Position numbers and translations under genes: made by a program. From contig JAVKFU010000015.1 of the NCBI GenBank assembly GCA_040223695.1, positions 106,534-170,533 on the forward strand: a DNA stretch of 64,000 nt. Reading direction: 5' to 3'. Of this stretch, positions 15,720-57,149 are shown piece by piece. Under the pieces are notes generated by a model. That model worked only from the letters and a program-made list of their open reading frames with translations, ran no database searches and had not been told where the DNA came from. The DNA comes from Deltaproteobacteria bacterium (GTDB taxonomy: Bacteria; Desulfobacterota_D; UBA1144; Nemesobacterales; UBA2774). The first letter of the stretch is position 1. Each line of letters starts with the position of its first letter.

Positions 15720-16089
15720 ACATCTGGTTGAATCTCTTTCCCGGAAAAATGATACAGACCGCAAACTGAAGTTACACGGGAGGATGAATAAGCCGTGACA
15801 TTGCAACAAAAAATCTTTACCGTTCGCCTGCTTCTGCCCGCAGGGCTTATGTCTGATGTCCGAATTTAAGACAATTGTCGTCGAGAGCTGCGCGACCGGT
15901 GCGGGCTGATTACCGGCGCAAGCTGAATTTTTGAAATACGGTGAATGCATGAACCTGCTGCTCTAATGGCTGTATGATTTCACTGCATATTGTTTTACAC
16001 GCGTGGCGGTATTGAATTTCCTCTTACGGGGTAAAGAACTCGCCCTCCTGACTCAGTTGGTATGCTGCTTGCAAGTTATTTCATGATAA

Positions 16090-16772: not shown

Positions 16773-18689
16773 ATGAAGAAAAGAATTACCAAAAAAGATG
16801 AGCCTCCGGGCGCGATTGAGTCCCACCGGACGGCTGGGGACCCCGAAACAGAATTCCTTGAGAATCAATACAGCTTTATTGTTGAGTCCGTTCCGAGCGG
16901 CATAGTAATGACCGATAATAAGGGGAAGATTATTTTCGTTAATTCACTCGTAAACAGGATGTTCGGATATGAGGAAAGCGAGCTGGTCGGCAGAAACATT
17001 GATGAGCTCGTACCGGACAGATATAAGAAGGGGCATGCCGCGCATAGGAAATCGTTCTTGTCGGCGCCCGAGACAAGACCTATGGGCAAAGGGAGGGATC
17101 TTTTCGCCAGAAGAAAGAACGGAAGCGAATTTCCTGTGGAGATAGGCCTTAATCCTGTGAAAACCGAGAGAGGATTGGTGGTCGTGAGCACAATAGTGGA
17201 TATCACTGACCGAAGAGCCGCTGAAATAAAATTGAAGGAGGAGCAGGACAGGACGCAAAGGTACCTTGACGTGGCGGAGGTTATTTTTCTGGGGCTTGAC
17301 GGCAAGGGTATTGTAACGCTCATAAACAGGAAGGGCGCAGAGATTCTCGAGTGCTCCGAGGAAAAAATATTAGGAAAGAGCTGGTTTGATAAATTCATCC
17401 CTCGCGAGGAACGTAACGAAGTATTAGAGGTTCATAGGAGAGTGATGAGGGGAGAATCCATAAACATTGCGTTTCATGAAAACAAGATAATCTCCGAATC
17501 GGGGAAGAAAATCGACGTGCTGTGGCACAACACCGCAATAGAGGGTGAAAATGGCAGAGTTATCGGTACTTTGAGCTCCGGGGTCGATATTACGGACCGG
17601 AAATATACCGAAAGGCGGCTTCAGGAAAGGGAAGAGAGATTGCGCAGTATCATGGATAATACTACCGACGCGATTCTGGTATTTGACAACGACGGCCTTA
17701 TTGAAACGATAAACAAAGCGGCTCTGAAGCTATTTGCCATTAATGACGAAGATGAAATCAAAAATATCCATGAGATAATTACACCCGAGCACAGGGACAG
17801 CTTTGCAGAGAGGCTTGAGAGGTCCAGAAACGGGGCCGCGATTTCGGACTATGAAACGGAGATGATCAAGAAAGACGGCTCCAGGATTCCCGTGAGTATC
17901 AGTCTTGTTTACATGGATCTGGATCGAGGCAAGTATATCGAGACAATAAGAGATATTTCTGCCAGGATTTCTATGCGCAAAAAGATCATAGAGCTCGAGA
18001 AATCTCAAATAATCGGGAAGATGGCGGAAGGTTTCGCTCACCATATGGGTACTCCTCTCGCTTCGATGCTTCTCAGGGTTCAGATGCTGAAAGAAGACAT
18101 ACCGTCTCTCCCGGAATGTGAGAGTGTCGGGGAAAAACTGGACTCTATAGAGAGGCAGATTTTGTATGGTCAGAAGGTGATTCAAAGGCTTTTGAGGTTT
18201 GTCAGCCAGCCGGGCAGTGAGAAAAGCTCGGAAAAAGTCTCTTCGTTGCTCGGTGAGTCGATCGATATGGTGAGACCCCTTCTCAAAAAAAAGATGATAG
18301 AGGTCGAGCTTGATGTTGAAGAGGGCTTGAGCATTTATGTGGACTCAAATCTGATAAATCTTGTCTTTACCGATATTATCATAAACGCTGTGGACGCTAT
18401 GCCTGACGGGGGAGTCCTTACGGTTGCAGCAGCGAACGATTATGATAACGGGTTAGCGAATATCAGAATCAATGATACGGGTAAAGGTATTTCGAAAGAG
18501 ACGATTTCCTTTGTTTTCGAGCCTTTTTTTACAACCAAGCCTGCGGGAAAGGGGACAGGGCTCGGACTTACAGTTGCCAAAAGGATTGTAAATGATCACG
18601 GAGGGGAAGTGAGTATAAGAAGCATGGAGGGGAAGGGTACGACGGTTATAATAAAACTTCCTTTATCCGCGGAGGGATATTCGTCTTGA
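16773..18689 (+). CDS. PAS-domain sensor histidine kinase.
   Basis: Several PAS repeats, HisKA (EGFAHHMGTPLASM) and HATPase_c (NDTGKGIS...GTGLGLTVAKRIVNDHGG). Confidence 0.85.
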   Translation: MKKRITKKDEPPGAIESHRTAGDPETEFLENQYSFIVESVPSGIVMTDNKGKIIFVNSLVNRMFGYEESELVGRNIDELVPDRYKKGHAAHRKSFLSAPETRPMGKGRDLFARRKNGSEFPVEIGLNPVKTERGLVVVSTIVDITDRRAAEIKLKEEQDRTQRYLDVAEVIFLGLDGKGIVTLINRKGAEILECSEEKILGKSWFDKFIPREERNEVLEVHRRVMRGESINIAFHENKIISESGKKIDVLWHNTAIEGENGRVIGTLSSGVDITDRKYTERRLQEREERLRSIMDNTTDAILVFDNDGLIETINKAALKLFAINDEDEIKNIHEIITPEHRDSFAERLERSRNGAAISDYETEMIKKDGSRIPVSISLVYMDLDRGKYIETIRDISARISMRKKIIELEKSQIIGKMAEGFAHHMGTPLASMLLRVQMLKEDIPSLPECESVGEKLDSIERQILYGQKVIQRLLRFVSQPGSEKSSEKVSSLLGESIDMVRPLLKKKMIEVELDVEEGLSIYVDSNLINLVFTDIIINAVDAMPDGGVLTVAAANDYDNGLANIRINDTGKGISKETISFVFEPFFTTKPAGKGTGLGLTVAKRIVNDHGGEVSIRSMEGKGTTVIIKLPLSAEGYSS

Positions 18690-20041
18690 GCACTGAAAAA
18701 TTCAGGGTACTTGTAGTAGACGATGACAAGGAATTTGTCGAAGCGGTCAAGGAGCTTCTCAATCGTAATAATTACGATGTAATTACCGCCTATTCCGGGG
18801 CGGACGCGCTTGAAAAAGCCCGGGAAGTACCGGATATAAAGCTGGCGCTTCTCGATCTGGTAATGCCTCTTATGGACGGCTTTGCACTGCTTGAAAAGCT
18901 CAGAGACTTGATCCCGGAGTTAACCGTTATAATCGTTACGGGTCAGGGTACGGTTCAGGCGGCTGTCGATGCGATAAAACGCGGCGCTGCGGATTTCATT
19001 ACCAAGCCTTTTGATAAAGATGTACTTTTGAAAAAACTGGATGTTGTCAGAAAGGCTCAGGAGCTTGAGAGCAGAGTGGGGACATTGAAGGAGCTCCTAT
19101 CGGAAAAGTACGGATTCGATAACATCATAAGCAGCTCGAAGGTGATGAAAACCGTTTTTGAAAAGGCCTCGGCCGCAGCCCATAGCAACGCGCCTGTATT
19201 TATTGTGGGGGAGACGGGAACGGGGAAAGAATTATTAGCCAAGGCCATACATCTAAGAGGCGGGAGAGCCGCACATCCTTTTGTGGGGGTGAATTGCGGT
19301 GCTATACCGAAAGAGCTCCTTGAGTCGGAACTTTTCGGTTACCGGAAAGGGGCTTTTACCGGAGCGGTAAGGGATCACGAAGGGCTTTTCATTGCCGCCG
19401 ATAAAGGAACGATATTTCTCGATGAGATAGGTGAAATGCCCAAAGACCTTCAGGTGAGGATGTTGAGGGTGCTTGAAGAATACAAAGTCAGGCCCATAGG
19501 ACATACGAAGGAGATAGCGCTTGATGTGAGGGTTGTAGCGGCGAGCAATCATACAATAGATGAGCTGAAGAATAAATATTTGAGGGAGGATCTTTTTTTC
19601 AGGCTTGCCGTAATAGTCATCGAGCTGCCGCCGCTCCGGGAAAGGAAAGGTGATATACCCTTGTTAATCGATCACTTTATCGGAAGGTTTAATAACAAGT
19701 ATTCAAAGAGAATAAGGGGGCTCTCGGAGGGAGCTTTCAGTTCACTCTATAATTATCATTTCCCGGGGAACATAAGGGAGCTCGAGAATTTGATTGAAGG
19801 CATAATAGCTGTCACGTCCCTGAGCAAGAACACTATTACCGAAAAGGACCTGAAGGCGCATCTCCTCTGGCAGCAGTCCAAAACCCCGGAGCACCAGCTC
19901 CTCTCACTGGATAGGCTCGAAAAATTCGCGCTTGAGCAGGCCCTTCGGGAATCCAGGGGGAACAAGTCAAAGGCTGCGGAGCTCCTGGGCATATCAAGAG
20001 ATACTCTTTACAGAAAACTAAAGCTCTATAAAGTCGATTGA
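18686..20041 (+). CDS. sigma-54-dependent two-component response regulator (NtrC family).
   Basis: REC domain (VLVVDDD...DLVMPLMDG), AAA+ sigma-54 activator (GETGTGKELLAKAIH, ESELFGY, GAFTGA) and Fis HTH. The TTG start overlaps the upstream kinase stop (TTGA). Confidence 0.85.
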   Translation: MSTEKFRVLVVDDDKEFVEAVKELLNRNNYDVITAYSGADALEKAREVPDIKLALLDLVMPLMDGFALLEKLRDLIPELTVIIVTGQGTVQAAVDAIKRGAADFITKPFDKDVLLKKLDVVRKAQELESRVGTLKELLSEKYGFDNIISSSKVMKTVFEKASAAAHSNAPVFIVGETGTGKELLAKAIHLRGGRAAHPFVGVNCGAIPKELLESELFGYRKGAFTGAVRDHEGLFIAADKGTIFLDEIGEMPKDLQVRMLRVLEEYKVRPIGHTKEIALDVRVVAASNHTIDELKNKYLREDLFFRLAVIVIELPPLRERKGDIPLLIDHFIGRFNNKYSKRIRGLSEGAFSSLYNYHFPGNIRELENLIEGIIAVTSLSKNTITEKDLKAHLLWQQSKTPEHQLLSLDRLEKFALEQALRESRGNKSKAAELLGISRDTLYRKLKLYKVD

Positions 20042-20234: not shown

Positions 20235-20303
20235 TTTTGTATCATTAACGTGCATCTGACGATTTAAAATATTATAACCTTCTGTTATTGCATAACTTTC
20301 TGA

Positions 20304-20318
20304 TGGCACCCGCTTTGC
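20304..20318 (+). promoter_or_regulatory. sigma-54 (RpoN) -24/-12 promoter.
   Basis: TGGCAC-ccgct-TTGC matches the TGGCAC-N5-TTGC consensus with correct GG/GC spacing. It is 52 nt upstream of the ATG at 20370 and is followed by a GAGGAGG RBS. Confidence 0.7.
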
Positions 20319-20369: not shown

Positions 20370-21230
20370 ATGGTTAAAAGGACTGTTTTATTTTCATTCT
20401 TGATTGCCGTGCTAGGTTTTTGTATTTGCGGTGTGTATGCATATGATGCATCCGCACAGGGGCAGGAAAACATGAAGGCGGAAATACAACAGCTCAAGCA
20501 GATGATGGGTCAGATGCAGGGCAGAATGGGGGAGATGCAGAGCAGAATAGATGAGCTTGAGCAAAAGAACATCATGCTCGAGCAGCAAGCTCAGGAGAGA
20601 GCAGAGGCAGCGGTTATAGTTGAAGAAACGTCCGTGACCGAAAAGACCGCAGATGAGCCTTTCGGTGGTGAGTTTGCCGTTACGATAGGCGCTCAGACAG
20701 GTCCTTTTAAGACAGGCACGGGTTTTTATTTGTCAGCCGAGCTTGGAGTTCCTTTATATAAAAACCTGGGGCCGGGAAAATTACTCGGTATTATGAGCTT
20801 CGGATGGGCAAGAACGGATGATGACATAACATTCGAGCCCACCGTCAACGCGATCGCGCCCGGCACACTTCCTACCCAGACAAGTGTAAATCTGGATACG
20901 GCAACAATTCTTCTGGGGCTAAAGTATAAACTTGAGGCTCACAGGATAGTTCAGCCTTTTGTTTTGGGAGGGCCGAGCATGAATCTGTTCTTCAATGAGA
21001 GCGACCCGGGAAGCCAAGTGGGAGGCATTGCTCCTCAGCCCAATATACTCCAGAAAAGAGGATTTCCGTCAGGTCAGGGAAATGCCGAGCTGGGAATTAC
21101 ACTTGGCGGAGGCGTTGATTTTAATGTCACACACAAGATATTTGTAGGGGCGCAGGGGTTATTTAACTGGGTCGACAGAGACAACGGTGCTTTCGGAACC
21201 TATGGCGGAAGGTTAGGATTCAGGTTTTAG
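20370..21230 (+). CDS. Outer-membrane beta-barrel protein with an N-terminal coiled-coil segment.
   Basis: Signal peptide, a Q/M-rich coiled coil and alternating amphipathic strands that end in the typical OMP C-terminus ..GGRLGFRF. Confidence 0.6.
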   Translation: MVKRTVLFSFLIAVLGFCICGVYAYDASAQGQENMKAEIQQLKQMMGQMQGRMGEMQSRIDELEQKNIMLEQQAQERAEAAVIVEETSVTEKTADEPFGGEFAVTIGAQTGPFKTGTGFYLSAELGVPLYKNLGPGKLLGIMSFGWARTDDDITFEPTVNAIAPGTLPTQTSVNLDTATILLGLKYKLEAHRIVQPFVLGGPSMNLFFNESDPGSQVGGIAPQPNILQKRGFPSGQGNAELGITLGGGVDFNVTHKIFVGAQGLFNWVDRDNGAFGTYGGRLGFRF

Positions 21231-21568: not shown

Positions 21569-22285
21569 CTATCTGGTCTGATGTGTATGATGAGCGTGTT
21601 TATCGCTCGTTGAAGGGATGAAGTGAATGGAGAAATTAACCAGCCCCACAAGAATTAAGATTATCCCCGCTACAACTGTCAGTCTCCTCGGCGCTCTCCG
21701 CATGCCCTTCTTGTATATAAAAGGGAATGCGGATAAGGCGGGTACTGTTCCGAGCCAGAATATGAAGAGTACCGCCGCTCCGTAGAGCGGGCTTTTTGTC
21801 GCTACCGACCCTATTACGAATATGTAGACCCAGCCGCAGGGGATGAATCCGTTTACAATTCCGAGTGTAAGGGACGCCGTTGGCTTGCTCTGCGTTAAGG
21901 ACCATTTTGCCGGGAGCCGGAGGAGTGAAGAGATGAACTTCGCCGGTATCAACTCAAGCGGCTTTCCCGTAATAAGCTTATAGCCTGTATAGATAAGGAA
22001 TGCCGATATTATTATTGCAGAAAATGTAGCTACAACGGGGTAGTTATTTGAGAGAAAAGCTTCCCCCAGGAGTCCCGCAAGTGCGCCGAGCGCCAGGTAG
22101 CTAAACAGCCGCCCTAGGTGATAGAGGCTCAGGTAGCCGAAATTATTGTTCACCGTAACGGCTATGGGCCCGCACATCGTAACACAGTGCGAGCTCCCGA
22201 GCAGGCTCGCTATAAAAACACCCAGCGGCACCGATAAAAAGGACCACTGCGCTATTAAATCATTAAATAAACCTGGGTCCGACAA
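21569..22285 (-). CDS. DsbD_2/UreH-like polytopic membrane protein. It is the last gene of the cco operon.
   Basis: About 6 TM helices with a conserved SSHCVTMCGPI motif characteristic of the cytochrome-biogenesis-like DsbD_2 family. The family assignment is from memory. Confidence 0.5.
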   Translation of the reverse strand: MSDPGLFNDLIAQWSFLSVPLGVFIASLLGSSHCVTMCGPIAVTVNNNFGYLSLYHLGRLFSYLALGALAGLLGEAFLSNNYPVVATFSAIIISAFLIYTGYKLITGKPLELIPAKFISSLLRLPAKWSLTQSKPTASLTLGIVNGFIPCGWVYIFVIGSVATKSPLYGAAVLFIFWLGTVPALSAFPFIYKKGMRRAPRRLTVVAGIILILVGLVNFSIHFIPSTSDKHAHHTHQTR

Positions 22286-23687
22286 GTTTTACGTCCTCGC
22301 CCGTTTTAATTGTATTGTCCTTAGGGTCAATGAAATTGAGTCTTATTGACCGTGTCCCCTGACTGCCCGTAACATCTTGAGGAAACTTTACGAAAAAGTG
22401 GACAGTAGCGTCCTTTCCCGCCTCAAGATTAATTATCTCGTTCTGCGAAACGATCTCGACGTTTTTTTTCTTCCATTCCTGAGGCAGCGTCATCTTGAGG
22501 CTTACATTGTCAAAAGTCTGATTTTTCATGTGCATTTTAAAGTGGTTTATTATTTGCTCGCCCTGCTCGTTTTTAATCACCTGAAAGGGAGAATCCTTGC
22601 CTCTTAGAACGGTGATGATTATATCCTCACGCTTCGATACGGAAAAAACGAGAGCCGCCATTACGGCGGCGAGCAGCACGGTATATATCGCTACTCTCGG
22701 TCTGAACCATTTCGTGGTCAATCTCTCGAGGCTGTTTCCCGTTGCGTATCTGATCAACCCCTTCGGCTTGTCGATCTTTTCCATTACCTCATCACAGGCG
22801 TCTATACAGGCGGTGCAGCCTATGCACTCGAGCTGAAGGCCGTTTCTTATGTCAATCCCCGTGGGACATACCGACACGCACTTATAACAATTTATACAGT
22901 CGCCCTCGGCCTCACCGTGCCCGGTTTTCCCCCTCCGGGGCTCGCCCCTGACCGGGTCGTATGAAACCGTAAGCGAATCGTCGTCCATGAGCACCGACTG
23001 GAACCTGCCGTACGGGCACATTATGATGCAGAACTGCTCCCTGAACCAGCCGAAGTCGAACAGAAAAACCGCTGTCAGAAAGGCCATTATGACAAAGATG
23101 GTCCAGTTCTGCTGCGGGTTGTGCCGGGTCATTTCCACAAGCCTGTCGGCGCCTACAAAATAGGCGAGAAAGCTGTGAGCGATAATCAGGCTCACTATAA
23201 GAAAGAGGGACCAGAGCACAGAGAGTTTAAAGAATTTTTTTATTCCCCAGGGCGCCCTTGCGAGGTTACGCTGCTGGATGTGGCTCCCGATAATCCAGTA
23301 CTCAAGCCTTCTGAATATACCGTCTATAAAAACAGTCTGAGGGCACGCCCATCCGCACCATACCCTTCCCCACACGGCGGTTATGAACGCAAGCCCTATT
23401 GTCAGAAACGCCAGTATAAAAAATATGAGAGGGGCGTCATGCGCGAAAAAAGTGAGACCGAATATAGAAAATTTTCTTTCTCCGATATTGAGGAGCAGGG
23501 CTTGATGTCCCCCGATTTTGATCCACGGAAGAAGGAGGAAAAAGATAACCAGAAAAATCTCGGTTACCGTTCTTGCTTGTCTCCAGAAACCCTTTACCCG
23601 CTCAGGGAATATAAAAACACGCTTGCCGGTCTCGTCCATTGTAGCCGGGCGTTCATCAGGCAGTTGTCTCTGATCCAGTACTTTCAT
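22263..23687 (-). CDS. ccoG: cbb3 oxidase accessory protein CcoG/FixG (membrane-bound 4Fe-4S ferredoxin).
   Basis: Motifs GRVWCGWACPQ and two ferredoxin CxxCxxCxxxCP motifs (CINCYKCVSVCP, CIGCTACIDAC). The start is chosen at the ATG that overlaps the ccoP stop (ATGA). The 39-aa Arg-rich extension in the ORF track is probably spurious. Confidence 0.8.
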   Translation of the reverse strand: MKVLDQRQLPDERPATMDETGKRVFIFPERVKGFWRQARTVTEIFLVIFFLLLPWIKIGGHQALLLNIGERKFSIFGLTFFAHDAPLIFFILAFLTIGLAFITAVWGRVWCGWACPQTVFIDGIFRRLEYWIIGSHIQQRNLARAPWGIKKFFKLSVLWSLFLIVSLIIAHSFLAYFVGADRLVEMTRHNPQQNWTIFVIMAFLTAVFLFDFGWFREQFCIIMCPYGRFQSVLMDDDSLTVSYDPVRGEPRRGKTGHGEAEGDCINCYKCVSVCPTGIDIRNGLQLECIGCTACIDACDEVMEKIDKPKGLIRYATGNSLERLTTKWFRPRVAIYTVLLAAVMAALVFSVSKREDIIITVLRGKDSPFQVIKNEQGEQIINHFKMHMKNQTFDNVSLKMTLPQEWKKKNVEIVSQNEIINLEAGKDATVHFFVKFPQDVTGSQGTRSIRLNFIDPKDNTIKTGEDVKLVGPRFI

Positions 23688-24253
23688 TTGCGCTCTATCT
23701 TCTCTCCCTGAGGAGCTTTCGCCCCGGGGGGATCGGTCCCCTGCAAACCATGTACGTAAACCGCGGTGCTCTCTATTACGTCCGCGGGTATGACGCCTTT
23801 CCACGGAGGCATACCCTTGTCGGGCACACCCTCGTTCACGACGGTAAGTATGGACGATATAGATCCGTCTCCGTGTATCCAGTACTCATCCGTCAGGTTA
23901 GGCCCGATAAGTCCCTGCCCCTTATCCCCGTGGCAGGGCATGCATTTGGCCATGAATTCCGCCTTCCCCTGCTCGGTAACTTCCCGGTTTGTAACCAGAG
24001 CGACCAGGTCCTCTTCGGTTTTTTCCCGGGCGGACCCGAGGGCCTCCTGCTGCTCCTCCCTTATAACACTCATCTCGCTCGCCAGCTCCTCGTCCAGCGT
24101 CGGTCCCCCCATAAACTGATAATAGACGAAATAGATAACCGCGAAAATTATGGTTATATAAAAGGTCGCAAGCCACCAGCCGGGGAGGGGATTATTAAGC
24201 TCTCTTATCCCGTCGTACTCATGATCTTTAATTAATTCGTCTTTTTCGGTCAT
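23684..24253 (-). CDS. ccoP: cbb3-type cytochrome c oxidase subunit CcoP/FixP, apparently mono-haem.
   Basis: CcoP N-terminus (DHEYDGIRELNNPLPGWW), one CMPCHG haem motif and a GMPPW Met-ligand region. It is only 189 aa. Confidence 0.75.
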   Translation of the reverse strand: MTEKDELIKDHEYDGIRELNNPLPGWWLATFYITIIFAVIYFVYYQFMGGPTLDEELASEMSVIREEQQEALGSAREKTEEDLVALVTNREVTEQGKAEFMAKCMPCHGDKGQGLIGPNLTDEYWIHGDGSISSILTVVNEGVPDKGMPPWKGVIPADVIESTAVYVHGLQGTDPPGAKAPQGEKIERK

Positions 24254-24393
24254 TGATTTTCCTCCTTTTTTGGCTCACCCTCATCTTCGAGGGGTAGCAT
24301 CTCCATTTCATGAATCTCCTCTTTCGGTCTCTTGAGAGCCCATATCACAAGAACGACAAATGCCGTTAAAAAGATAATCAGGGCTATTATCAC
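24250..24393 (-). CDS. ccoQ: Small CcoQ-like single-TM subunit. It is below the ORF-track size cut-off.
   Basis: A GTG-initiated 47-codon ORF (IIALIIFLTAFVVLVIWALKRPKEE...) lies between ccoNO and ccoP. Its stop overlaps the ccoP ATG (ATGA). Confidence 0.5.
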   Translation of the reverse strand: MIIALIIFLTAFVVLVIWALKRPKEEIHEMEMLPLEDEGEPKKEENQ

Positions 24394-24422
24394 TATTTCC
24401 GCATTCTGAAAATACGATAGAG

Positions 24423-26585
24423 CTACCTGTTTGATGTCGTTACCTCCTCGGTAGCGGTCTTTTTGCCGAGGCTCTGCAAATAAGCGATAAGCGCGACGAC
24501 CTCGGTGTCCTTTATCAAAGTAAGTGAGGGGTCCTGGCTGAGCAGCTCCTCGTATATTCGGGCAGCCTCCTTTTCCGCGTTTATGTCGGCGTCTGAAACC
24601 TCCCGGTCGTCGTAAGGCACACCCAGCATTTTCATCACGCTGAATTTCTTTCTCAGTATGTGATAATCGATTTTATTTGCCGCGAGCCACGGGTAAGAGG
24701 GCATGATGGAATTGGGCGTAATTTCCCTTGGGTTTATCATATGGCGGAGATGCCACATATCCGGATATTTACCTCCGACCCTGGCAATGTCCGGCCCCGT
24801 TCTTTTTGAGCCCCATTGAAAGGGCCTGTCATACATCGATTCCGCTATAGTGGAGCTTGGACCGTACCTGAGCACATCGAACGGGAGCTTCCTTATCATC
24901 TGCGAGTGGCACACGTAGCACCCCTCCCTGATGTAAATATCCCTTCCCGCGAGCTCAAGCGGCGTGTACGGCTCCGTTTTTTCAGCCGACGGGAGATACT
25001 TGTAGATCGAGAGAGTGGGTATTATTTCGATTACGGAACCCACCGCGATTGATATGAAAAGAAGCACGGTGAAAACGAGGCTAAGCGCCTCAAGTTTTCT
25101 GTGGCCGCTACCGACCGCCGTCGGGTCGGCTGAAAGCGGGGCGGCTTCAACTACGGTGACTTTTTTCTCCCTGGGCGCGTGTTTAATGGTTACCCATACG
25201 TTGTATATGAGCATGAGGAAGCCCGTGAGGAAAAGCGCGCCGCCTGCGAACCTGACCCAGTAAAGAGGCACTATTCTCATCACCGTTTCAACAAAGTCGG
25301 GATATACGAGCTGTCCGTTCTCGCCTATTGCCTGCCACATGAGCCCCTGAGTAATGCCGCTTGCCCACATCGAGATGTAGTACAGAAGAATTCCGAGAAA
25401 TCCTATCCAGAAATGCCAGTTCATGAGTCTCTGGCTCCGCATCTTCGTATTCCAGAGCTTCGGCACCAGGTAGTAGATTATTCCGAAGGTAAGGAACCCG
25501 TTCCATCCGAGTGTGCCGCCGTGCACATGGCCGATTATCCAGTCGGTATAGTGGGCGAGGGAGCTGACCGATTTTATCGACAGTAAAGGGCCTTCGAAGG
25601 TGGACATACCGTAAAAAGTCACTGCCACGGCCAGGAATTTAATAATCGGGTCCGTGCGGAGCTTGTGCCATGCTCCCCTGAGCGTGAGAAGGCCGTTAAT
25701 CATGCCGCCCCAGCTCGGCGCCCAGAGCATTACGCTGAAAATCATGCCGAGGGTCTGCGCCCAGTCGGGAAGCGCGGTATTCAAAAGATGGTGAGGCCCC
25801 GCCCATATGTATATGAAAACGAGGGACCAGAAATGGATGATTGAGAGCTTATAGCTGTAAATAGGCCTGTTGGCTGCTTTGGGCACGTAGTAGTACATCA
25901 GTCCCAGAAACGGCGTCGTGAGGAAAAAAGCGACGGCGTTATGGCCGTACCACCACTGAACGAGAGCGTCCTGTACTCCGGCGTACACAGGATAGCTTTT
26001 AAGAAACGCGACCGGTATTTCGATCGAGTTCACTATATGGAGCAAGGCCACCGTAATAATCGTGGCTATGTAAAACCATATCGCTACGTACAGATGCTTT
26101 ACTCTTCGTATGGCGATTGTTCCGAAAAAATTAGCGGCGAAGACTACCCAGACGACCGCGATTGCCACATCGAGCGGCCACTCAAGCTCAGCGTATTCCT
26201 TACTCATGGTGTAGCCTAAGGGCAGTGTAATCAGCGCGCCTACGATAATAAGCTGCCAGCCCCAGAAATGGAACTTGCTCAGAAAATCGGAGTAGTTACG
26301 TGTTTTAAGGAGCCTCTGCGTAGAGTGATATATGCCCGCGAAGATTATATTTCCGGCAAACGCGAAAATTGCAGCGTTTGTGTGGAGAGGCCTTATCCTC
26401 CCGAACGTAAGCCACGGGATCTCCAGATTTGCCGGCCAGAATGCCAGCTGGAGCGCTGCAAGAAGCCCGACCATAAACGCCGCCGCTCCCCAGAAAATTG
26501 TTGCATAGAGAAACATCTTTACGATTTCATCGTCGTAAACAACCTTCTCCAGAACTGTGGATTTAGGTCCGTTGTCCTGACTCAT
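24423..26585 (-). CDS. ccoNO: cbb3-type cytochrome c oxidase fused subunit I/II (CcoN-CcoO fusion).
   Basis: A 12-TM haem-copper oxidase domain with His ligands, followed by a CcoO-like mono-haem domain (EGCYVCHSQMIRKL...YPDMWHLRHMINPREI). Confidence 0.85.
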   Translation of the reverse strand: MSQDNGPKSTVLEKVVYDDEIVKMFLYATIFWGAAAFMVGLLAALQLAFWPANLEIPWLTFGRIRPLHTNAAIFAFAGNIIFAGIYHSTQRLLKTRNYSDFLSKFHFWGWQLIIVGALITLPLGYTMSKEYAELEWPLDVAIAVVWVVFAANFFGTIAIRRVKHLYVAIWFYIATIITVALLHIVNSIEIPVAFLKSYPVYAGVQDALVQWWYGHNAVAFFLTTPFLGLMYYYVPKAANRPIYSYKLSIIHFWSLVFIYIWAGPHHLLNTALPDWAQTLGMIFSVMLWAPSWGGMINGLLTLRGAWHKLRTDPIIKFLAVAVTFYGMSTFEGPLLSIKSVSSLAHYTDWIIGHVHGGTLGWNGFLTFGIIYYLVPKLWNTKMRSQRLMNWHFWIGFLGILLYYISMWASGITQGLMWQAIGENGQLVYPDFVETVMRIVPLYWVRFAGGALFLTGFLMLIYNVWVTIKHAPREKKVTVVEAAPLSADPTAVGSGHRKLEALSLVFTVLLFISIAVGSVIEIIPTLSIYKYLPSAEKTEPYTPLELAGRDIYIREGCYVCHSQMIRKLPFDVLRYGPSSTIAESMYDRPFQWGSKRTGPDIARVGGKYPDMWHLRHMINPREITPNSIMPSYPWLAANKIDYHILRKKFSVMKMLGVPYDDREVSDADINAEKEAARIYEELLSQDPSLTLIKDTEVVALIAYLQSLGKKTATEEVTTSNR

Positions 26586-26767
26586 TTATCCTTTTCCTCC
26601 TTCGAATCTTGATTTCTTGGTTCGGTCTCGTAATCATCTATTAACATTCTGTGACCGGGGGTCTTGAGGTCGTCCCACTGCCCCTTTCGTGCGGCCCATA
26701 TGAAGGCAAGCAGGAAAATTAACGCCATGGCTATAGAAATTCCAAGCGTCAAGAAAATTATATTCAC
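26582..26767 (-). CDS. ccoS: cbb3 oxidase maturation protein CcoS/FixS.
   Basis: A 61-aa single-TM protein (FLTLGISIAMALIFLLAFIWAARKGQWDDLKTP). Overlaps both neighbours by 4 nt. Confidence 0.75.
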   Translation of the reverse strand: MNIIFLTLGISIAMALIFLLAFIWAARKGQWDDLKTPGHRMLIDDYETEPRNQDSKEEKDK

Positions 26768-29217
26768 GTCTTCGCCACCTTTCTCTTGGTATCGAGAATC
26801 GTCTGTCCGTATAATGTAGAGCCGATCAGAAGCAGCGAGCTTAGCGGCATAAGGACCGCCGCCGCGAGAGGCGTTATAAAGCCCGTCAGCGCGAATCCCC
26901 CCGCAGCTACGTTATAAATTATTGAAAAAACCGTGTTTCTTCTTATGGTTTCGCCAGTCGCATTGCCGTGATCGATAAGGTCCAGAATTGTGAAAAGGTC
27001 GTTGTTGAGTATGTACGCGTCGGATACTTTGAGACTTTCCTCGACGCTCCCCTGTATTGCTACGCTCACGTCGGATGAGGACAGCGCGCCTGCGTCATTC
27101 AGTCCGTCCCCTATCATAAGGGAGTTCCGGTTTTCACTGATTATTCTCGATTTGCCCTCGGGTATTTCCTCCCAGTACGCCTGTGAGTATGGGATTTGAA
27201 GCTTATCGGCCACATGCTTCACATTATTCTCCTTGTCGCCGGAAAGTATGAAAACTTTATACCCCCTCACCACAAGCTCGTTTATTACGAACTTGGCGTC
27301 TTCTTTCAGCGTATCCCCCAGAACTATTTCCGAGACCGGTTTTCCGTCTTTATGGACCACTATTTTAGTAGTGATAATTTCGTTCAGATCGTTTTGGCCG
27401 ATTACACTATTCTCGGACGTTAACCGGTAATGGTGCCCGTCTGCCACGGCTTCAATCCCTTCGGAGTATATGTGTCTGAAATCTCTGACTTCGGGCAGCG
27501 GGTAGTTGTTGTCCTTGAGATGAGCTGTGAGGGTGCGGGCTATCGGATGGTTCGATTTCTTCTCTATTGCGAGGATTGCGGCATAGTCTTTCTCCGAAAG
27601 CTCCCCGGAGTTCCACTTGAGGATTTTGAATACCCCGTTTGTAAGCGTGCCGGTCTTGTCGAAGAAGATTTTTTCGACAGACGGGAGCTTCTCGAAGTTC
27701 CCGGCGTCTTTAATCAGAAATCCCTTGGCCATCCCCGATTTCAGCGACAGTCCGTAGGAAAGCGGCAGTGCGAATACAAAGGCGCAGGGACAGGATATAA
27801 GCGTAAAGGCGATTACCCTTTCTAGCGCCTCGGAAGTATTGTAAAGATATGATATAGTGAAGAACGTAGCCACCGCGGCGATTCCCACTATCAGTGTGAA
27901 GACCGTGGAGTATTTGTCGCTGTATGTCGAGAGGCCGATTTTACCCCTGTAATTGCTTTCGACCTGATCCAGTATCTTCCCGATTCTGGTGGATTTCCCG
28001 GTTTTGGCTACTTTAAGAACCGCTTCGTCAGACTCGAGTATCGAGCCTGCGAATACGCTGTCTTTCCTCCTGACTGTCTCGGGAATGTTCTCGCCCGTAA
28101 GCACGGACAGGTTTAGATCGGCGTTTCGGGATAAAAGCTCGCCGTCAGCCGGAACGCGCTCCCCTTTGTGGAGCTTTATCCTCTGCCCCGGCCTGAGATT
28201 CTCGACGGGCTGATAAAAGAACTGCCGAGCCTTATCATCCCATATAAGAACCCGATTGGATGAAAACAGGCTCCGGCTCACCGGTTCTTTTCGCACTACC
28301 CTGTCCTGTACCGTTTTAAGAAGATATCTGCTTCCGAGAAGGAGAAGCACGAATGCGGTTATCGAGTCAAAATATATCTGGTCGCTTCCGTTAAAGTAGT
28401 TGTAAGCGCTCAGTACGAAACCGATCACGATGACGAACACGATCGGTATATCGACCGTAGCGCGTTTCATTCTGAGTGAGCTCAGTACGCTCTTGTAAAA
28501 GGGATAAGCGCAGTATGTGACCACGGGCAGAGACAGAAGAAGGTTGAGCAGCATAAAGTTCTCCGCAAACACTCCCCCCGCGCCGGAATAGACCGCCGCC
28601 GAAAGGAGCATTATATTTCCTGCGCAAACTGCCGCTACAGATAGTCTTATGAGCGATTTTCTGTTTTCCCGCCGTTTTAATTCCCGCGCCTCCTCATCGA
28701 TCCTTACGGGATGAGCCCTGTAACCGAATTTCTTCGCTATTACGGGGAAGGATGAGAAATTCCGTTCGGGGGTGAAATTAACTGTTGCGGTATTATCGGA
28801 CATGTCGAGCGAGACGGATTCGATTTCAGGGGTGTAATCGGGGATTTTCTCTATCAGCCACAAACATGCCGCACACTCGATTCCCTCCACGTAGAAATTC
28901 ATGGAGAGGGGGCTTTCTGCCGCCGTGTATAATTCGATAAAACTTTTCTGATTCAGGTATTCATAGTTCTCGGTTGATTCCGTATCTATTGGCGCGCCCG
29001 TTTTTCCGATATCCTGGGCGTCTTTGATTTTGTAGTAATTATCCAGGCCGAGAGTGTGCAGAAGCTCATAGACGGACATACATCCCCTGCAGCAGAAATT
29101 CCCGGATTCGGAAACTACCGTGTTCGAGGAATCAAGCTCCTCCCCGCAATGCAGGCAGCGGGCGGATTCCGGTTTGCTTTTGTGAGCGCTGTCTCTGGAA
29201 ACTGTAGTGATTGCCAT
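26764..29217 (-). CDS. ccoI: Copper-translocating P1B-type ATPase CcoI/FixI.
   Basis: N-terminal Cys-rich and HMA-like region (ECAACLW), TM CPC motif (ISCPCAFVFALP), DKTGTLT phosphorylation site and a GDGLNDAGAL hinge. Confidence 0.85.
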   Translation of the reverse strand: MAITTVSRDSAHKSKPESARCLHCGEELDSSNTVVSESGNFCCRGCMSVYELLHTLGLDNYYKIKDAQDIGKTGAPIDTESTENYEYLNQKSFIELYTAAESPLSMNFYVEGIECAACLWLIEKIPDYTPEIESVSLDMSDNTATVNFTPERNFSSFPVIAKKFGYRAHPVRIDEEARELKRRENRKSLIRLSVAAVCAGNIMLLSAAVYSGAGGVFAENFMLLNLLLSLPVVTYCAYPFYKSVLSSLRMKRATVDIPIVFVIVIGFVLSAYNYFNGSDQIYFDSITAFVLLLLGSRYLLKTVQDRVVRKEPVSRSLFSSNRVLIWDDKARQFFYQPVENLRPGQRIKLHKGERVPADGELLSRNADLNLSVLTGENIPETVRRKDSVFAGSILESDEAVLKVAKTGKSTRIGKILDQVESNYRGKIGLSTYSDKYSTVFTLIVGIAAVATFFTISYLYNTSEALERVIAFTLISCPCAFVFALPLSYGLSLKSGMAKGFLIKDAGNFEKLPSVEKIFFDKTGTLTNGVFKILKWNSGELSEKDYAAILAIEKKSNHPIARTLTAHLKDNNYPLPEVRDFRHIYSEGIEAVADGHHYRLTSENSVIGQNDLNEIITTKIVVHKDGKPVSEIVLGDTLKEDAKFVINELVVRGYKVFILSGDKENNVKHVADKLQIPYSQAYWEEIPEGKSRIISENRNSLMIGDGLNDAGALSSSDVSVAIQGSVEESLKVSDAYILNNDLFTILDLIDHGNATGETIRRNTVFSIIYNVAAGGFALTGFITPLAAAVLMPLSSLLLIGSTLYGQTILDTKRKVAKT

Positions 29218-29315
29218 TGTATTGGTATTCTGCTCTTATCGCGAAAATTAGAGCAATAACAATGCCAATTCATACACGAATGATATTGGGATTTAAGCTA
29301 TAGGGCAGATGTCCG

Positions 29316-29335
29316 GTGTCAGATTATAAGACAGT
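29316..29335 (-). promoter_or_regulatory. Candidate promoter/operator of the cco operon. A palindrome embeds a TATAAT -10 box (minus strand CTGTCTTATAATCTGACAC).
   Basis: TGTC-N9-GACA inverted repeat about 100 nt upstream of ccoI. It is 16 of 18 identical to a second copy at 32695..32713. Confidence 0.45.
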
Positions 29336-29631
29336 AAATTTCTTTTGTGATTAAAGATATGACGGGATTATAAATAAAGTTGGTGCAGCCAAATATGCTG
29401 CGGCAAATCGGTTTCGGATAAATAAAGCCCTGTCAGTCAAACTCACTACTCATTAACTAAAAATCAGATAAAGAAACATGATAAAGAATAAACCTATAGA
29501 AATCAGGAACAAAAAAGATGCGAAATTTTGATTTGTTGAATCTTTCATGATGATCTCCTCTTGCTATTCAAATTCCATTATAAAACGATTCCGTGGTCAT
29601 AATCAACACTATTATTAAAATTGCCGAGTTG

Positions 29632-30114
29632 TCAATCGCTTAGCATCTTTTTCATTTTAAACCGCTCGAACCGAAGGCCTTTTCTTAAAGCCGTTTCGGT
29701 TTCGACGATTTCAAAACCCATTTTGAGAAAAAAGGGCTTTGATACCCTGCTGGCCTCGGTGCGAAGTATTATTATACCCGCCGATAGCGAGTGCGCTTCG
29801 AGTTCCCTGTAAATCGCAGTCGCAACCCCGGTTCGTGAATGGCCTTTCATTGTATAGAGTAAGGATATGTGGTCAACGGGGTTAAGGGCGCCGAATGCGA
29901 ACGGGCCGTCGGTGGCCTCGGCGACAAGCGTATATCCCGACTCGAGCAAATTCCCGAACTCCCCGGTCTCATCGGAAAAAGACGCCCAGACCCGGAGCCG
30001 CTCCGGGTCATAGTGTCCTTTGCCGAGCTCTAATACCGAGTCCCTGTAAACTTTGGCCAGTTTATCTATATCGGAGCCGGTGTATTGTCTTATCTTGATT
30101 TCGGAATGAGTCAT
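29632..30114 (-). CDS. GNAT family N-acetyltransferase.
   Basis: GNAT fold motifs. The start is set at the ATG that overlaps the stop of the upstream methyltransferase (ATGA). The ORF track begins 9 codons earlier. Confidence 0.6.
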   Translation of the reverse strand: MTHSEIKIRQYTGSDIDKLAKVYRDSVLELGKGHYDPERLRVWASFSDETGEFGNLLESGYTLVAEATDGPFAFGALNPVDHISLLYTMKGHSRTGVATAIYRELEAHSLSAGIIILRTEASRVSKPFFLKMGFEIVETETALRKGLRFERFKMKKMLSD

Positions 30115-30833
30115 TTTATGCCCGCAAACGCGGCAAAGCATGAGTTTTTATGGAGGACATCCATGACGCGGAATCCGGCCTTCTTCATCAAGTCGAGCTG
30201 ATAGGTTAGGCTTCTCGGTGTGTCCTCTTTGTCTATATATTCGAAGACTTTCTTGCTGTATTCAGGTCCGCCGACCCGTTCGAGATGCCCGGCGTACCCC
30301 TCCAGCATCGCGCCCTGGATTGCATCGTGTTCATGATGTACCAGGTCGCTAACGAAAAATGCGCCCCCGGGCTTTAGAAGACCGTATATTTTCTTGAAGG
30401 AGTTCTCCCAGTCTGCATCGTCTCTCAAGTGGTGCAGCACGGCCGCGGCAATTATAAGGTCGTAATTAGATTGGGGAAGCGCGATTTTCCTGAAATCCCC
30501 CTGGAAAATCCGGACCCGTCCCGCGTTTTCTTTCCCCAGGCGCTCCTTTGCCCGCTCCAGCATCGGCAGGCTGAGGTCCACCAGGTCGCAGTTTATGCCT
30601 CCTTTCAGTCTCAGAATCGCGATAGCATTGTTTCCCGCGCCAGAGCCTATATCGAGAAGCTCCCGTGCGTCGGGTTTTATCCCGACTGCGAGAGTGGATA
30701 TAAGCTCCATCATGAGAGGGGCGTCGATTACCGCTTCCTGGCCCGTATCCAGATTGGAGAAACGCTCGACGTCTGCGTCGAAACGCTCTTTTATCTCATC
30801 GACAGTGGATTTTTTATGCGGAGGCGTTTTCAT
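30111..30833 (-). CDS. Class I SAM-dependent methyltransferase.
   Basis: Motif I LDIGSGAGNNAI, a post-I acidic residue (CDLVDLS) and motif II. Confidence 0.7.
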   Translation of the reverse strand: MKTPPHKKSTVDEIKERFDADVERFSNLDTGQEAVIDAPLMMELISTLAVGIKPDARELLDIGSGAGNNAIAILRLKGGINCDLVDLSLPMLERAKERLGKENAGRVRIFQGDFRKIALPQSNYDLIIAAAVLHHLRDDADWENSFKKIYGLLKPGGAFFVSDLVHHEHDAIQGAMLEGYAGHLERVGGPEYSKKVFEYIDKEDTPRSLTYQLDLMKKAGFRVMDVLHKNSCFAAFAGIK

Positions 30834-31323
30834 TTCCTATTATATTACCCCCGGACAGTTTTAGCGCCATCGGGATGTGCAATACCCCGTGAATCGTTTT
30901 CGGTCCGGACGTTTGAACGAACCCCAGGCTCTCATAAAACGGCACGGCGAATGTCGAGGAGTTTACGGTTATCTTTTCCGGGGTTCCGCTGCCTGATCCT
31001 ATCCTTTCAAGCGCGGTTCCGACAAGCTCCTTCGCTATTCCTCTACGGTGAAATTCCTTATCCACGAACAGCATGGATATATGTCTTCTTCCCCTAATCT
31101 CTATAATCCCGGCTATAGCGCCGTCAGTCTCTGCTACTATAGTAATATGATTGCCCAGGGAGCGTTTAGCGAGCTCGCGCGGATTTGCGTATCTGAAGAA
31201 CTCCTCTATTCCGTCTTCTGAAAATTCGGGCGCGATGAACTCGTTAAAGGAACGGGCCACGAGGTTGCAAACCTCCGCCTCCTCGCCCGGTCTCAAGGGT
31301 CTGTAAATTGTGGACTTTGCCAT
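30814..31323 (-). CDS. GNAT family N-acetyltransferase.
   Basis: GNAT motif A (HRRGIAKELVGTAL). Confidence 0.65.
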   Translation of the reverse strand: MAKSTIYRPLRPGEEAEVCNLVARSFNEFIAPEFSEDGIEEFFRYANPRELAKRSLGNHITIVAETDGAIAGIIEIRGRRHISMLFVDKEFHRRGIAKELVGTALERIGSGSGTPEKITVNSSTFAVPFYESLGFVQTSGPKTIHGVLHIPMALKLSGGNIIGNENASA

Positions 31324-31415
31324 TTGCTACCGGAATTACGCTTCAAAAATCTTTATATAAATTAATATTGCTAAACTTTCCTTGATATGCAAAGACCGAT
31401 TGACTGCCGAAAGAA

Positions 31416-31976
31416 TCAGCCGGAGCTTTTAGGCAGCATCCAGGCTATAAGCGTGAAGACTACTGCGATTACGAGAGCGGTTGCAACGCCCGGAATACTA
31501 TCAACTATTACGGGATAGTCAGGGTTGGGAGTGAAAGCGATAGTGGAATCACCGGCGAGTATCCATTTGAAAATCCCCGTGCTCGATACCCTCCCGTGAA
31601 CAAGTATGTACATAAATGCCCCGCCGAGTCCTCCAATCACAAAAAATCCGGCGTCTTTTCTCCCCTCCCCGAGGGCGGCTACACCGGTTCCCGGACAGTA
31701 GCCTCCTACCGCCCATCCGAGTCCCATTATAAGACCCCCCGCGACTACGCCCCAGTGGGTTATCTCGACGGACAGGTGCGAAGGGTCTATGATCCCGAGC
31801 GTCACGCCGAGGAAGAGAAGCACACTCGCTACGGCTATACCGAACAGGGTCGTCTTCATGAGGTGAAAGTCTGTCAGCCTGAGCATATCTATAATCCTCT
31901 GCGGATTCGATGCTCCGACTCTGTGAAGTACGAAGCCGAAGAGCGTGCCTAGTATTACCGCGTACAATAAGTTCAT
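31416..31976 (-). CDS. YeeE/YedE family sulfur-compound transporter half-protein.
   Basis: Polytopic protein with the signature GGYCPGTG loop (DUF395). Confidence 0.65.
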   Translation of the reverse strand: MNLLYAVILGTLFGFVLHRVGASNPQRIIDMLRLTDFHLMKTTLFGIAVASVLLFLGVTLGIIDPSHLSVEITHWGVVAGGLIMGLGWAVGGYCPGTGVAALGEGRKDAGFFVIGGLGGAFMYILVHGRVSSTGIFKWILAGDSTIAFTPNPDYPVIVDSIPGVATALVIAVVFTLIAWMLPKSSG

Positions 31977-31989
31977 CTTGTCCCCTCGG

Positions 31990-32556
31990 TTATTTTCTTC
32001 CGTAAATCAGAATTGCCGCGGGAATCGCGACGGCAAAAGCCGCCATAGCGAAAAGGTATCCGCTTACGGAGGTCTGCATAATGCCGCTCACCATATGCCC
32101 GCTCGTGCTACCCCCTGCGAGCCTTGCTCCGAACAGCACGAGGCCGCCGCCCGTGAGAGCCGCCAGGTACCTCACTGCGGGGGAGTCCCCGAATCTGTTC
32201 CGCCACACCTCGGGGGCTGTTTTATCGCTCCGGGTTGCTTTGGGGCCTTTCGTAATGGAGGAGAGAAAAGCGCCTACAATAATGAACACTACGAATACGA
32301 AGCTATAGTTGAAGGGTTTCGCTATACTCTTGGCGTATTTCCCCCCGCTCTTGTTCAGGTATGAAATGGTGCTCGAATAGCCGGATTCTCTTCCGGGGTC
32401 TTCTTTGATGAGTTGCGGCGTACGTTTGCTCCATATGATTCCGTCAAGTATCACGAACTGGGTAGATACTCCTATCGGCTCTACCGCCCACACCGCCAGC
32501 ACGAATACGATACCCAGCGCAAGCCCGCCCCAAAACCAGTTTAGCTGTCCCGTCAT
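31990..32556 (-). CDS. YeeE/YedE family sulfur-compound transporter half-protein (partner of the downstream gene).
   Basis: Polytopic protein. The signature loop is GGSTSGHMVSG, a Ser-for-Cys variant of GGCTSGHG. Confidence 0.6.
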   Translation of the reverse strand: MTGQLNWFWGGLALGIVFVLAVWAVEPIGVSTQFVILDGIIWSKRTPQLIKEDPGRESGYSSTISYLNKSGGKYAKSIAKPFNYSFVFVVFIIVGAFLSSITKGPKATRSDKTAPEVWRNRFGDSPAVRYLAALTGGGLVLFGARLAGGSTSGHMVSGIMQTSVSGYLFAMAAFAVAIPAAILIYGRK

Positions 32557-32694
32557 TTCTCCGACCTCCGGTGAAATAATACCTTAGTATGTAAGTAGGT
32601 ACTTACACATACTGCGCAGAAGTTAATTATACAGTAATTAGGTATAGCTAGGGTGATTAAATGTATTTAACGAAGCGTATACGTTTCTGCTGAC

Positions 32695-32713
32695 TGTCAG
32701 ATTATAGGACGGG
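32695..32713 (-). promoter_or_regulatory. Second copy of the TGTCAGATTATARGACNG promoter/operator palindrome, upstream of the YeeE/YedE operon.
   Basis: CTGTCAGATTATAGGACGG. The minus strand reads CCGTCCTATAATCTGACAG with a TATAAT -10 box, 137 nt upstream of the start at 32556. Confidence 0.45.
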
Positions 32714-35671: not shown

Positions 35672-35962
35672 GTCGTTTTAGTGTTCCGGTGCTATTGTTA
35701 GCGCGTATATGAAGCACATAGTACAAGCAGGTGCTTTTCTGATCAATATCCGGAAAAATTTCCCTGTTAAAAAACCCTGCATTGTTGATTTATTCACAGA
35801 TGCTGCTGTTCGATTTCTTACAATTACATATAGTCCGAACATCTGGCTTTTTGTCTAATCCGCTGTCAAAACTCGCTTTATCCTTCTTCAATAATATGGC
35901 ACGCCTATTGCACTAACAATATAATAAGGAGCTTTTAAATTTACACATAGGAGGTAGTAATT

Positions 35963-53424: not shown

Positions 53425-53510
53425 GTCATTGCGAGGTTGCGAAGCAACCGCGGCAATCTCATCCTTTCAACCCCCTCATCCTAGTAGTGAGCCTGTCGAA
53501 CTATCGATGG
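53425..53510. repeat. Solo copy of repeat modules A and C.
   Basis: GTCATTGCGAGGTTGCGAAGCAACCGCGGCAATCTCATCCTTTCAACCCCCTCATCCT..GCCTGTCGAAC. The A-hairpin stem is replaced by GGTTGC/GCAACC, so structure is conserved rather than sequence. Confidence 0.75.
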
Positions 53511-57126: not shown

Positions 57127-57149
57127 TTATTTTAAGGAGCGAAAATTCC

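Follow-up and report, generated by a model that had tools for sequence, protein, structure and literature searches.

Here we describe a conserved regulatory motif in a stretch of 64,000 nucleotides (nt) from a Deltaproteobacteria bacterium (contig JAVKFU010000015.1), hereafter the window; all coordinates are window positions. The motif, TGTC-N9-GACA-N3-GACA, lies upstream of ccoI, the first gene of a cbb3 oxidase operon, and a second copy lies upstream of the first yeeE gene of a transporter operon. The motif is probably the upstream activating sequence (UAS) of an NtrC-family enhancer-binding protein that acts at sigma-54 promoters. The best candidate for this protein is the regulator encoded at 18686-20041, with the PAS histidine kinase encoded beside it as its partner. 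This reading is favored because the motif keeps a fixed spacing to sigma-54 promoters, recurs at other promoters and has an inverted copy at the regulator operon itself. The regulon is of a fairly ordinary bacterial type, in an uncultured lineage.

The initial annotation presented the two copies as a near-identical repeat, and both sequences exist. The first, GTGTCAGATTATAAGACAGT, lies at 29316-29335 as claimed, while the second, the 19-mer CTGTCAGATTATAGGACGG, lies at 32694-32712, one base lower than the 32695-32713 that had been given. The 12-mer TGTCAGATTATA occurs exactly twice in the window (29317-29328 and 32695-32706). The only matches of the 16-mer TGTCAGATTATARGAC without mismatch are at these two places. 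Read on the minus strand, both copies do have the form GTC-Y-TATAAT-CTGACA, with a perfect TATAAT inside. They also stand upstream of ccoI and the first yeeE gene, at 99 and 139 nt from the ATGs (29217 and 32556). The identities of the genes in both operons were confirmed by Pfam. The chance expectation of 0.01 attached to the repeat holds only for a word specified in advance; the window contains 163 maximal exact direct 12-mer repeats versus 94 +/- 11 in shuffled sequences. Because such repeats are common and the pair agrees at only 16 of 19 positions in its frame, the repeat by itself is not significant. On the comparative evidence given below, the significance of the motif comes from conservation and not from repetition.

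Related loci were gathered by three routes. Homologues of YeeE provided L001, L017, L004 and others, a search of metagenomes with the N-terminus of CcoI provided L011-L016, and homologues of the neighboring regulator provided L019-L024. L001 and L019 are separate parts of the same contig, which comes from a fully syntenic relative. The YeeE and regulator proteins of the window have 100% identity to proteins of a metagenome-assembled genome with the label Deltaproteobacteria. The YeeE and regulator homologues come from metagenome-assembled genomes of Thermodesulfobacteriota and 'Candidatus Dadabacteria'. Six ccoI upstream sequences make up alignment A2, and the yeeE upstream sequences make up alignment A3.

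The ccoI site of the window, CTGTCTTATAATCTGACACCGGACATC, can be written as TGTC-N9-GACA-N3-GACA or as a 17-bp dyad, TGTCTTA-N3-TCTGACA, with one extra GACA. Across eight related genomes the pattern YGTC-N5-ATCTGACA-N3-GACA is kept. The seven other sequences are CCGTCCAATTATCTGACACACGACATC, ATGTCAAAAAATCTGACACACGACATA, CTGTCTTATTATCTGACAACCGACACC, CTGTCTTATTATCTGACAATCGACACC, CTGTCCAAAAATCTGACAATCGACATA, CTGTCTGAATATCTGACATTCGACACC and TTGTCAGAGTTTCGTACATCTGACATT. The fixed parts are GTC, ATCTGACA (with TACA in the most distant locus) and the further GACA. The hexamer reads TATAAT, AATTAT, AAAAAT, TATTAT, GAATAT or GAGTTT across the orthologues. Neither a conserved -35 box at 16-18 bp nor a TG extension was found upstream of the motif in A2 or A3. 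Judged from these alignments, the TATAAT at ccoI in the window is just the A/T-rich spacer of the dyad and is not kept. The initial annotation also noted GCTATAGGG-like sequence shared upstream of the two copies. These bits were found on the gene side, that is downstream when read on the minus strand, and the orthologous loci of A2 do not keep them. They were dropped, together with a shared TCCCGTC, as not conserved across genomes.

The whole ccoI upstream region in A2 holds only two conserved islands, the motif and TTGGCATAGTTATTGCTC. The latter fits the consensus of -24/-12 sigma-54 promoters (TGGCAY-N5-TTGC), and such a promoter is present in every ccoI locus (TGGCATTGTTATTGC in the window). 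In all of these loci, including L022 with its GAGTTT hexamer, TGGCA follows GTC at a distance of 65-67 nt, and this spacing places the center of the motif near -83. A contrast is provided by the same intergenic region, where a hydrophobic open reading frame (ORF) of 31 amino acids is preceded by a sigma-70 promoter (TTGAYT-N17-TATAAT) of which both hexamers are kept in all genomes. By this measure of conservation, the ORF promoter displays how a conserved sigma-70 promoter looks in this lineage. The product of the ORF may be a small oxidase-associated membrane peptide.

Two further observations concern the ccoI upstream region. A moderately conserved block, GTATTCAT or ATTCGTG, lies between the ccoI enhancer and the sigma-54 promoter, near -45 (about 29270-29290 on the minus strand, and at the orthologous positions). 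It might be the site of a bending protein, with a poor fit to the IHF consensus. The ccoI upstream region of L022 (about 20900-20960, minus strand) contains a tRNA-like 3' fragment (GGTTCGAATCC...), possibly the remnant of an integration site.

The motif is not confined to the two starting copies. The exact pattern TGTC-N9-GACA-N3-GACA has only two matches in the window, at ccoI and upstream of the regulator operon, versus approximately 0.008 expected. A relaxed pattern has four matches versus 0.5 expected: the ccoI site, 20238-20261, 15848-15874, and one at 30036 on the minus strand, which is inside a coding region and was taken as chance. The match at 20238-20261 precedes the gene of an outer-membrane beta-barrel protein, and in L019 the motif stands 66 nt before the sigma-54 promoter of the orthologous gene. 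The match at 15848-15874 is the inverted copy at the regulator operon, which is kept in L019, L020/L021 and L022; the inverted sites at this operon lie 80-220 nt from the promoter. All three promoters in the window (ccoI, outer-membrane protein gene and regulator operon) have a -24 GG and a -12 GC in the form TGGCAY-N5-TTGC, and this is kept in all orthologous loci. The annotation's proposal that the two starting sites are copies of one conserved cis-element is thus supported by conservation in orthologous loci. A regulator shared by both operons is plausible, and the idea of co-regulation extends to four sites in the window.

The same arrangement was found at other genes in the relatives. The motif lies 66 nt before a sigma-54 promoter at the nos nitrous oxide (N2O) reductase cluster of L023 (12679-12760) and at a CBS-domain gene of L022 (12543-12625). 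In the latter the first half-site is degenerate (TGAA for TGTC) and fails the relaxed pattern. At the HSP20 genes of L024 (5753-5840) and at a phosphoenolpyruvate (PEP)-synthase/PPDK-type gene of L002 (2680-2775) the spacing is 86-87 nt. These sites at nos, HSP20, PEP-synthase/PPDK-type and CBS genes point to a wider low-oxygen or stress regulon. The direct-orientation spacing is 65-67 nt at cco, the outer-membrane protein gene, nos and the CBS gene. Helical phasing was considered as a unifier of all sites and fails, with spacings of 65-67, 86-87 and 91-92 nt.

Two more sigma-54-like promoters, TGGCACGCCTATTGCAC and TGGTATTCATATTGCTT, are intergenic in the window, and neither has the motif upstream. 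Other activators are therefore probably involved at these two. The sigma-54 promoter of the regulator operon, TGGTATGCTGCTTGC, ends approximately 18 nt before the annotated ATG (16058-16092), an arrangement that is kept in relatives. A promoter so near the ATG implies either a leader of about 6-7 nt or a true start codon further downstream.

The yeeE site, CCGTCCTATAATCTGACAGTCAGCAGA, has the same core as the ccoI site. The window, L001 and L017 have the block CCGTCCTATAATCTGACA in identical form in spite of diverged flanks, and TATAAT is kept in 3/3 of these genomes, which are close relatives. The yeeE site of L004 is degenerate (TGTC-N9-TACA-N3-TACA). In L001 and L017 a sigma-54-like sequence with a non-consensus -12 element, TGGCAC/T-N5-TTGT, is found 91 nt downstream of the site. 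The window has TGCGCA-N5-TGTA where the relatives have TGGCAC/T, and the -24 GG is lost (TGCGCAGTATGTGTA). An extended -10 candidate, TGTATAAT, is present at 32626-32633. The yeeE site is, by its conservation, a genuine copy of the same element, but its output is uncertain. It might be weak activation of a poor sigma-54 promoter, or repression of a sigma-70 start inside the site. A palindrome, TGTAAGT-N4-ACTTACA, adjoins the yeeE ribosome-binding site and may be the operator of a second regulator. It is read as an operator and not as an RNA hairpin because the three genomes display no covariation.

In L012 (5846-5936) the two yeeE genes are absent, and the GNAT and methyltransferase genes come immediately after a SpoIIAA-like gene. 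The two transporter genes therefore form a variable insert at this location. A scan of the genome collection for YeeE gave only seven loci, none of which keeps synteny over both intergenic regions. YeeE homologues at 64-75% identity mostly lie in other gene contexts, and the motif is absent there.

The initial annotation stated that no regulator gene is adjacent. In fact, genes for a PAS histidine kinase and an NtrC-type activator (16773-20041) are located just beyond the far end of the cco cluster. The activator has the Pfam domains Response_reg, Sigma54_activat (AAA+, with GAFTGA at residue 222) and HTH_8 (a Fis-type helix-turn-helix), and it scores below every cut-off of the NCBIfam equivalogs. 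Its recognition helix does not vary among 118 homologues (69-100% identity), which fits a conserved DNA target. In each of the six genomes that offer enough context (window, L019, L012, L013, L020/L021 and L022), the kinase and regulator genes flank the cco cluster, and their operon itself has an exact copy of the motif core. The motif accompanies the pair in every genome examined, to a regulator identity as low as 72%, and flanks the operon on both sides. Four things are direct observations: that the motif is conserved, that it keeps a fixed distance to sigma-54 promoters, that the gene order is kept, and which domains the regulator has. From these, this particular regulator is the most likely protein to bind the motif.

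The signal may be deduced in part from the kinase. Haem-PAS domains of FixL and DosP are among the best PDB matches of its first PAS domain (E 6e-14 to 4e-9). The single best match, slightly higher, is 10jx, an uncharacterised multi-sensor kinase. The histidine of KKGH in this domain aligns with the proximal histidine of FixL, and the arginine of the downstream GxGR is kept. An oxygen or redox signal is plausible, on two grounds: the likeness of the first PAS domain to those of FixL and DosP, and the kinds of genes that are targeted.

The NtrC consensus, TGCACCA-N3-TGGTGCA, has the geometry of a 17-bp dyad. The dyad pattern of NtrC-type sites is also stated in PMC11841059. The 17-bp dyad of our motif has this geometry, which supports its reading as a UAS. 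In the proposed mechanism, the phosphorylated regulator would bind the dyad TGTCWNA-N3-TCTGACA and the extra GACA 3 nt further on, at a site centered about 83 nt upstream of the transcription start. Through DNA looping and ATP hydrolysis it would then open sigma-54 RNA polymerase at TGGCAY-N5-TTGC. The targets in the window would be the cbb3 operon ccoI-ccoS-ccoNO-ccoP-ccoG, the neighboring outer-membrane protein gene and the GNAT-kinase-regulator operon, so that the regulator would act on its own operon (autoregulation). The yeeE site would be a fourth conserved copy, of uncertain output. The features are listed in Table 1.

Table 1. Features of the window discussed in the text (positions in nt; a point marks a feature without strand).
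Feature	Position	Strand	Remarks
ccoI upstream site CTGTCTTATAATCTGACACCGGACATC	29308..29334	-	proposed UAS; conserved in eight genomes
sigma-54 promoter TGGCATTGTTATTGC of the ccoI-ccoS-ccoNO-ccoP-ccoG-dsbD operon	29253..29267	-	-24 GG, -12 GC; in every ccoI locus
cbb3 oxidase cluster: ccoI (26764-29217), ccoS, fused ccoNO, ccoP, ccoG, DsbD_2	21569..29217	-	Pfam
weaker copy TGTATCATTAACGTGCATCTGACG	20238..20261	+	upstream of outer-membrane beta-barrel protein gene (20370-21230); 65 nt before sigma-54 promoter
sigma-54 promoter TGGCACCCGCTTTGC of outer-membrane protein gene	20304..20318	+	65 nt from weaker copy
inverted copy TTGTCTTAAATTCGGACATCAGACATA	15848..15874	-	exact pattern match upstream of GNAT-kinase-regulator operon; proposed autoregulatory site
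sigma-54 promoter TGGTATGCTGCTTGC of GNAT (16090-16671)/PAS kinase/regulator operon	16058..16072	+	conserved in L019, L020/L021, L022, L023, L024
PAS histidine kinase	16773..18689	+	first PAS domain FixL/DosP-like
NtrC-family response regulator/sigma-54 activator	18686..20041	+	candidate motif binder
yeeE upstream site CCGTCCTATAATCTGACAGTCAGCAGA	32686..32712	-	same core; third half-site AGCA, not GACA
degenerate sigma-54-like element TGCGCAGTATGTGTA	32604..32618	-	92 nt downstream of yeeE site
palindrome TGTAAGT-N4-ACTTACA	32590..32607	.	adjoins yeeE ribosome-binding site; arms invariant, spacer varies (window, L001, L017)
transporter operon: half-size YeeE/YedE genes (31990-32556, 31416-31976), then GNAT, methyltransferase, GNAT	29632..32556	-	Pfam
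31-aa hydrophobic ORF MKDSTNQNFASFLFLISIGLFFIMFLYLIFS	29453-29548	-	between GNAT gene and ccoI enhancer; no Pfam match
sigma-70 promoter of 31-aa ORF, TTGATT-N17-TATAAT	29577-29606	-	conserved, like the ORF, in all ccoI loci
sigma-54-like promoter TGGCACGCCTATTGCAC	35897-35913	+	intergenic, before hypothetical gene at 35963; no motif upstream
sigma-54-like promoter TGGTATTCATATTGCTT	6222-6238	-	intergenic, before Rieske/FAD oxidoreductase gene (4528-6129); no motif upstream

The initial annotation had interpreted the TATAAT in the palindrome as the sigma-70 -10 box of each operon, occluded by a dimeric repressor on TGTC-N9-GAC. The perfect hexamer in both window copies, its retention in the yeeE orthologues and the listing of ATCACA-17-TATAAT at 29351-29323 by a promoter scan are consistent with this, and all six ccoI sequences of A2 share A, A and T at hexamer positions 2, 5 and 6. 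However, the ccoI hexamer decays to AAAAAT, GAATAT and GAGTTT in orthologues, whereas GTC, ATCTGACA and GACA around it do not change, and a conserved -35 box or TG extension is absent at both genes. The invariant sigma-54 promoter at fixed spacing downstream of the ccoI site, the presence of the motif before other sigma-54 promoters, and the inverted site at the regulator operon, where the hexamer would point the wrong way, make the repressor model very improbable. A variant that retains the hexamer has the activator turning on the sigma-54 promoter and shutting a weak sigma-70 promoter whose -10 box is inside the site, mainly at yeeE. In enteric bacteria the NtrC sites at glnA overlap glnAp1, where NtrC represses, which is a precedent. 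The strict retention of TATAAT at yeeE, and the perfect conservation of that site in a window without a canonical sigma-54 promoter there, would agree with such a dual function. Against it stand the absent -35 box, the small sample of three closely related yeeE sequences and the separate extended -10 candidate at 32626-32633, and we regard it as unlikely.

The protein that binds the motif could also be another one: a different sigma-54 activator, or a LysR-type or architectural protein that modulates these promoters. The dyad GTC-N9-GAC fits the generic pattern T-N11-A, a gene fragment of a second activator is present at 2-1267, and the assignment to the neighboring regulator comes from sequence comparison. 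Sigma-54 promoters need an activator, however, and upstream of the ccoI promoter no block other than the motif is conserved; the way in which it tracks the kinase/regulator pair and flanks their operon also leaves another binder quite improbable. A chance likeness of two A/T-rich promoter regions with no common function would accord with the frequency of exact 12-mer repeats. This has a negligible probability, given that both copies are kept in orthologous loci despite diverged flanks and that a position-weight-matrix scan scores the two starting sites at 36-37 and anything elsewhere in the window at about 16 at most. An Rfam scan of the window at gathering thresholds gave no match, so the motif is not accounted for by a known RNA element. 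An IHF site was rejected on a by-eye comparison with WATCAA-N4-TTR, and a CRP/FNR-type site was rejected on its wrong spacing (5-N4/N6-5 versus 4-N9-4).

Several points weigh against the UAS reading. The invariant A, A and T of the ccoI hexamer would allow a weak -10 function. The window has no canonical sigma-54 promoter at yeeE (TGCGCA for TGGCAC), the relatives have the non-consensus TTGT there, and the spacing of 91-92 nt differs from that at ccoI by about 2.5 helical turns. The genome has other sigma-54 activators; the partial gene of one of them, on the plus strand and running off the window start, is 39% identical to the candidate regulator gene. One composite site per promoter was seen, versus the usual two or more dyads of NtrC-type activators, and the extra direct GACA half-site is unaccounted for. 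Finally, the case is comparative throughout.

The closest known system is the NmpRSTU/NmpR regulon of Myxococcus xanthus. NtrC-like NmpR binds dyad enhancers upstream of sigma-54 promoters and activates these under low oxygen, the proposed signal. Besides its own operon, it controls an operon of P-type ATPase and cbb3 genes, hemN, and genes for a CBS-domain protein and a universal stress protein (PMC11841059). Its site is GCGCA-N5-TGCGC in two copies 14-15 bp apart, and sensing is by a phosphorelay of the protoglobin kinase NmpU and the hybrid kinase NmpS (PMC11841059). The architecture is shared here: an NtrC-like regulator, sigma-54 promoters at the ATPase-cbb3 operon and at the regulator's own operon, the motif at both, and in L022 the motif at a CBS-domain gene too; activation is our inference. 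The two systems differ in the DNA site, which is a single TGTC-N9-GACA-N3-GACA here, and in the sensor, which is one multi-PAS HisKA/HATPase kinase encoded beside the regulator instead of a protoglobin kinase and a hybrid-kinase phosphorelay. The NmpR consensus has 24 loose matches in the window versus 23 expected, none at the relevant promoters.

In the rhizobial FixL-FixJ-FixK system, a haem-PAS kinase controls fixNOQP and fixGHIS, which encode the cbb3 oxidase and its assembly proteins. The first PAS domain of our kinase resembles the FixL/DosP haem domains, with the proximal histidine aligned. Unlike FixJ, which is of LuxR type, the partner here is an NtrC-type sigma-54 activator; the FixK/FNR box (TTGAT-N4-ATCAA) is absent and the promoters are of the sigma-54 type. 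The enhancers of NtrC at glnAp2 and those of ZraR type are likewise 17-bp dyads upstream of a -24/-12 promoter, with control of the own operon. NtrC enhancers function independently of orientation, and the regulator-operon site here is inverted. They differ in their half-site sequence. Here a third, direct half-site joins the dyad in one composite site, which lies very near the promoter at a fixed position (center near -83), and the targets are respiratory rather than nitrogen or metal genes. The sigma-54-dependent regulator of CorSR in M. xanthus controls a cluster that includes a copper P-type ATPase and a CcoP-like cytochrome (PMC3707914). Unlike the sensor described here, CorS responds to copper in the periplasm and has a HAMP domain, and the CorSR cluster lacks a complete cbb3 operon. 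The literature searched contained no report of the motif or of sigma-54 control of cbb3 in this lineage. Literature on sigma-54 control of cbb3 in Desulfovibrio-type organisms and a 2025 survey of sigma-54 regulons held nothing relevant.

Elsewhere in the window, short repeats with hairpin potential, such as GTCATTACGAGCCGCAAAGCGGCTC..AATC and CTCATCCTGAGCGCACATGAAGTGTGCAGTCGAAAGATG, occur at 51364-52309, 53455-53486 and 57064-57128. The family occupies a region of about 1 kb that lacks long ORFs, as well as two other places, and it has the look of repetitive extragenic palindromes (REP) or miniature inverted-repeat transposable elements (MITE).

A more far-reaching version of the UAS reading, which we hold to be rather unlikely as a whole, has a FixL-like haem-PAS kinase wired to an NtrC-type activator and not to FixJ/FixK. 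It would govern a low-oxygen regulon through a three-half-site enhancer at 65-67 nt, with cbb3, N2O reductase, HSP20, PEP-synthase/PPDK-type and CBS genes as targets and a switch like glnAp1/p2 at YeeE/YedE. If true, the enhancer would be a previously undescribed one, in an uncultured Thermodesulfobacteriota/'Dadabacteria'-like lineage. In this genome the activator site at yeeE would at the same time be an operator that covers a sigma-70 -10 box, and the uptake of sulfur compounds would be coupled to the supply of oxygen.

The UAS reading names a candidate regulator and mechanism for the expression of the cbb3 oxidase in an uncultured, mostly anaerobic lineage. The predicted regulon is small: the cbb3 oxidase, an outer-membrane protein and the regulator operon, with N2O reductase, HSP20 and CBS genes in relatives. 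It also illustrates that a perfect TATAAT in the A/T-rich spacer of a dyad can pass for a promoter. By its sequence features this would be the second example, after NmpR of Myxococcus, of sigma-54/NtrC-type control of a ccoI-cbb3 operon, with another sensor and another DNA site. The system is of a well-known kind, and its interest lies mainly in the physiology of the uncultured group and in the yeeE link. The connection to the YeeE/YedE transporter, if true, would be the less expected part.

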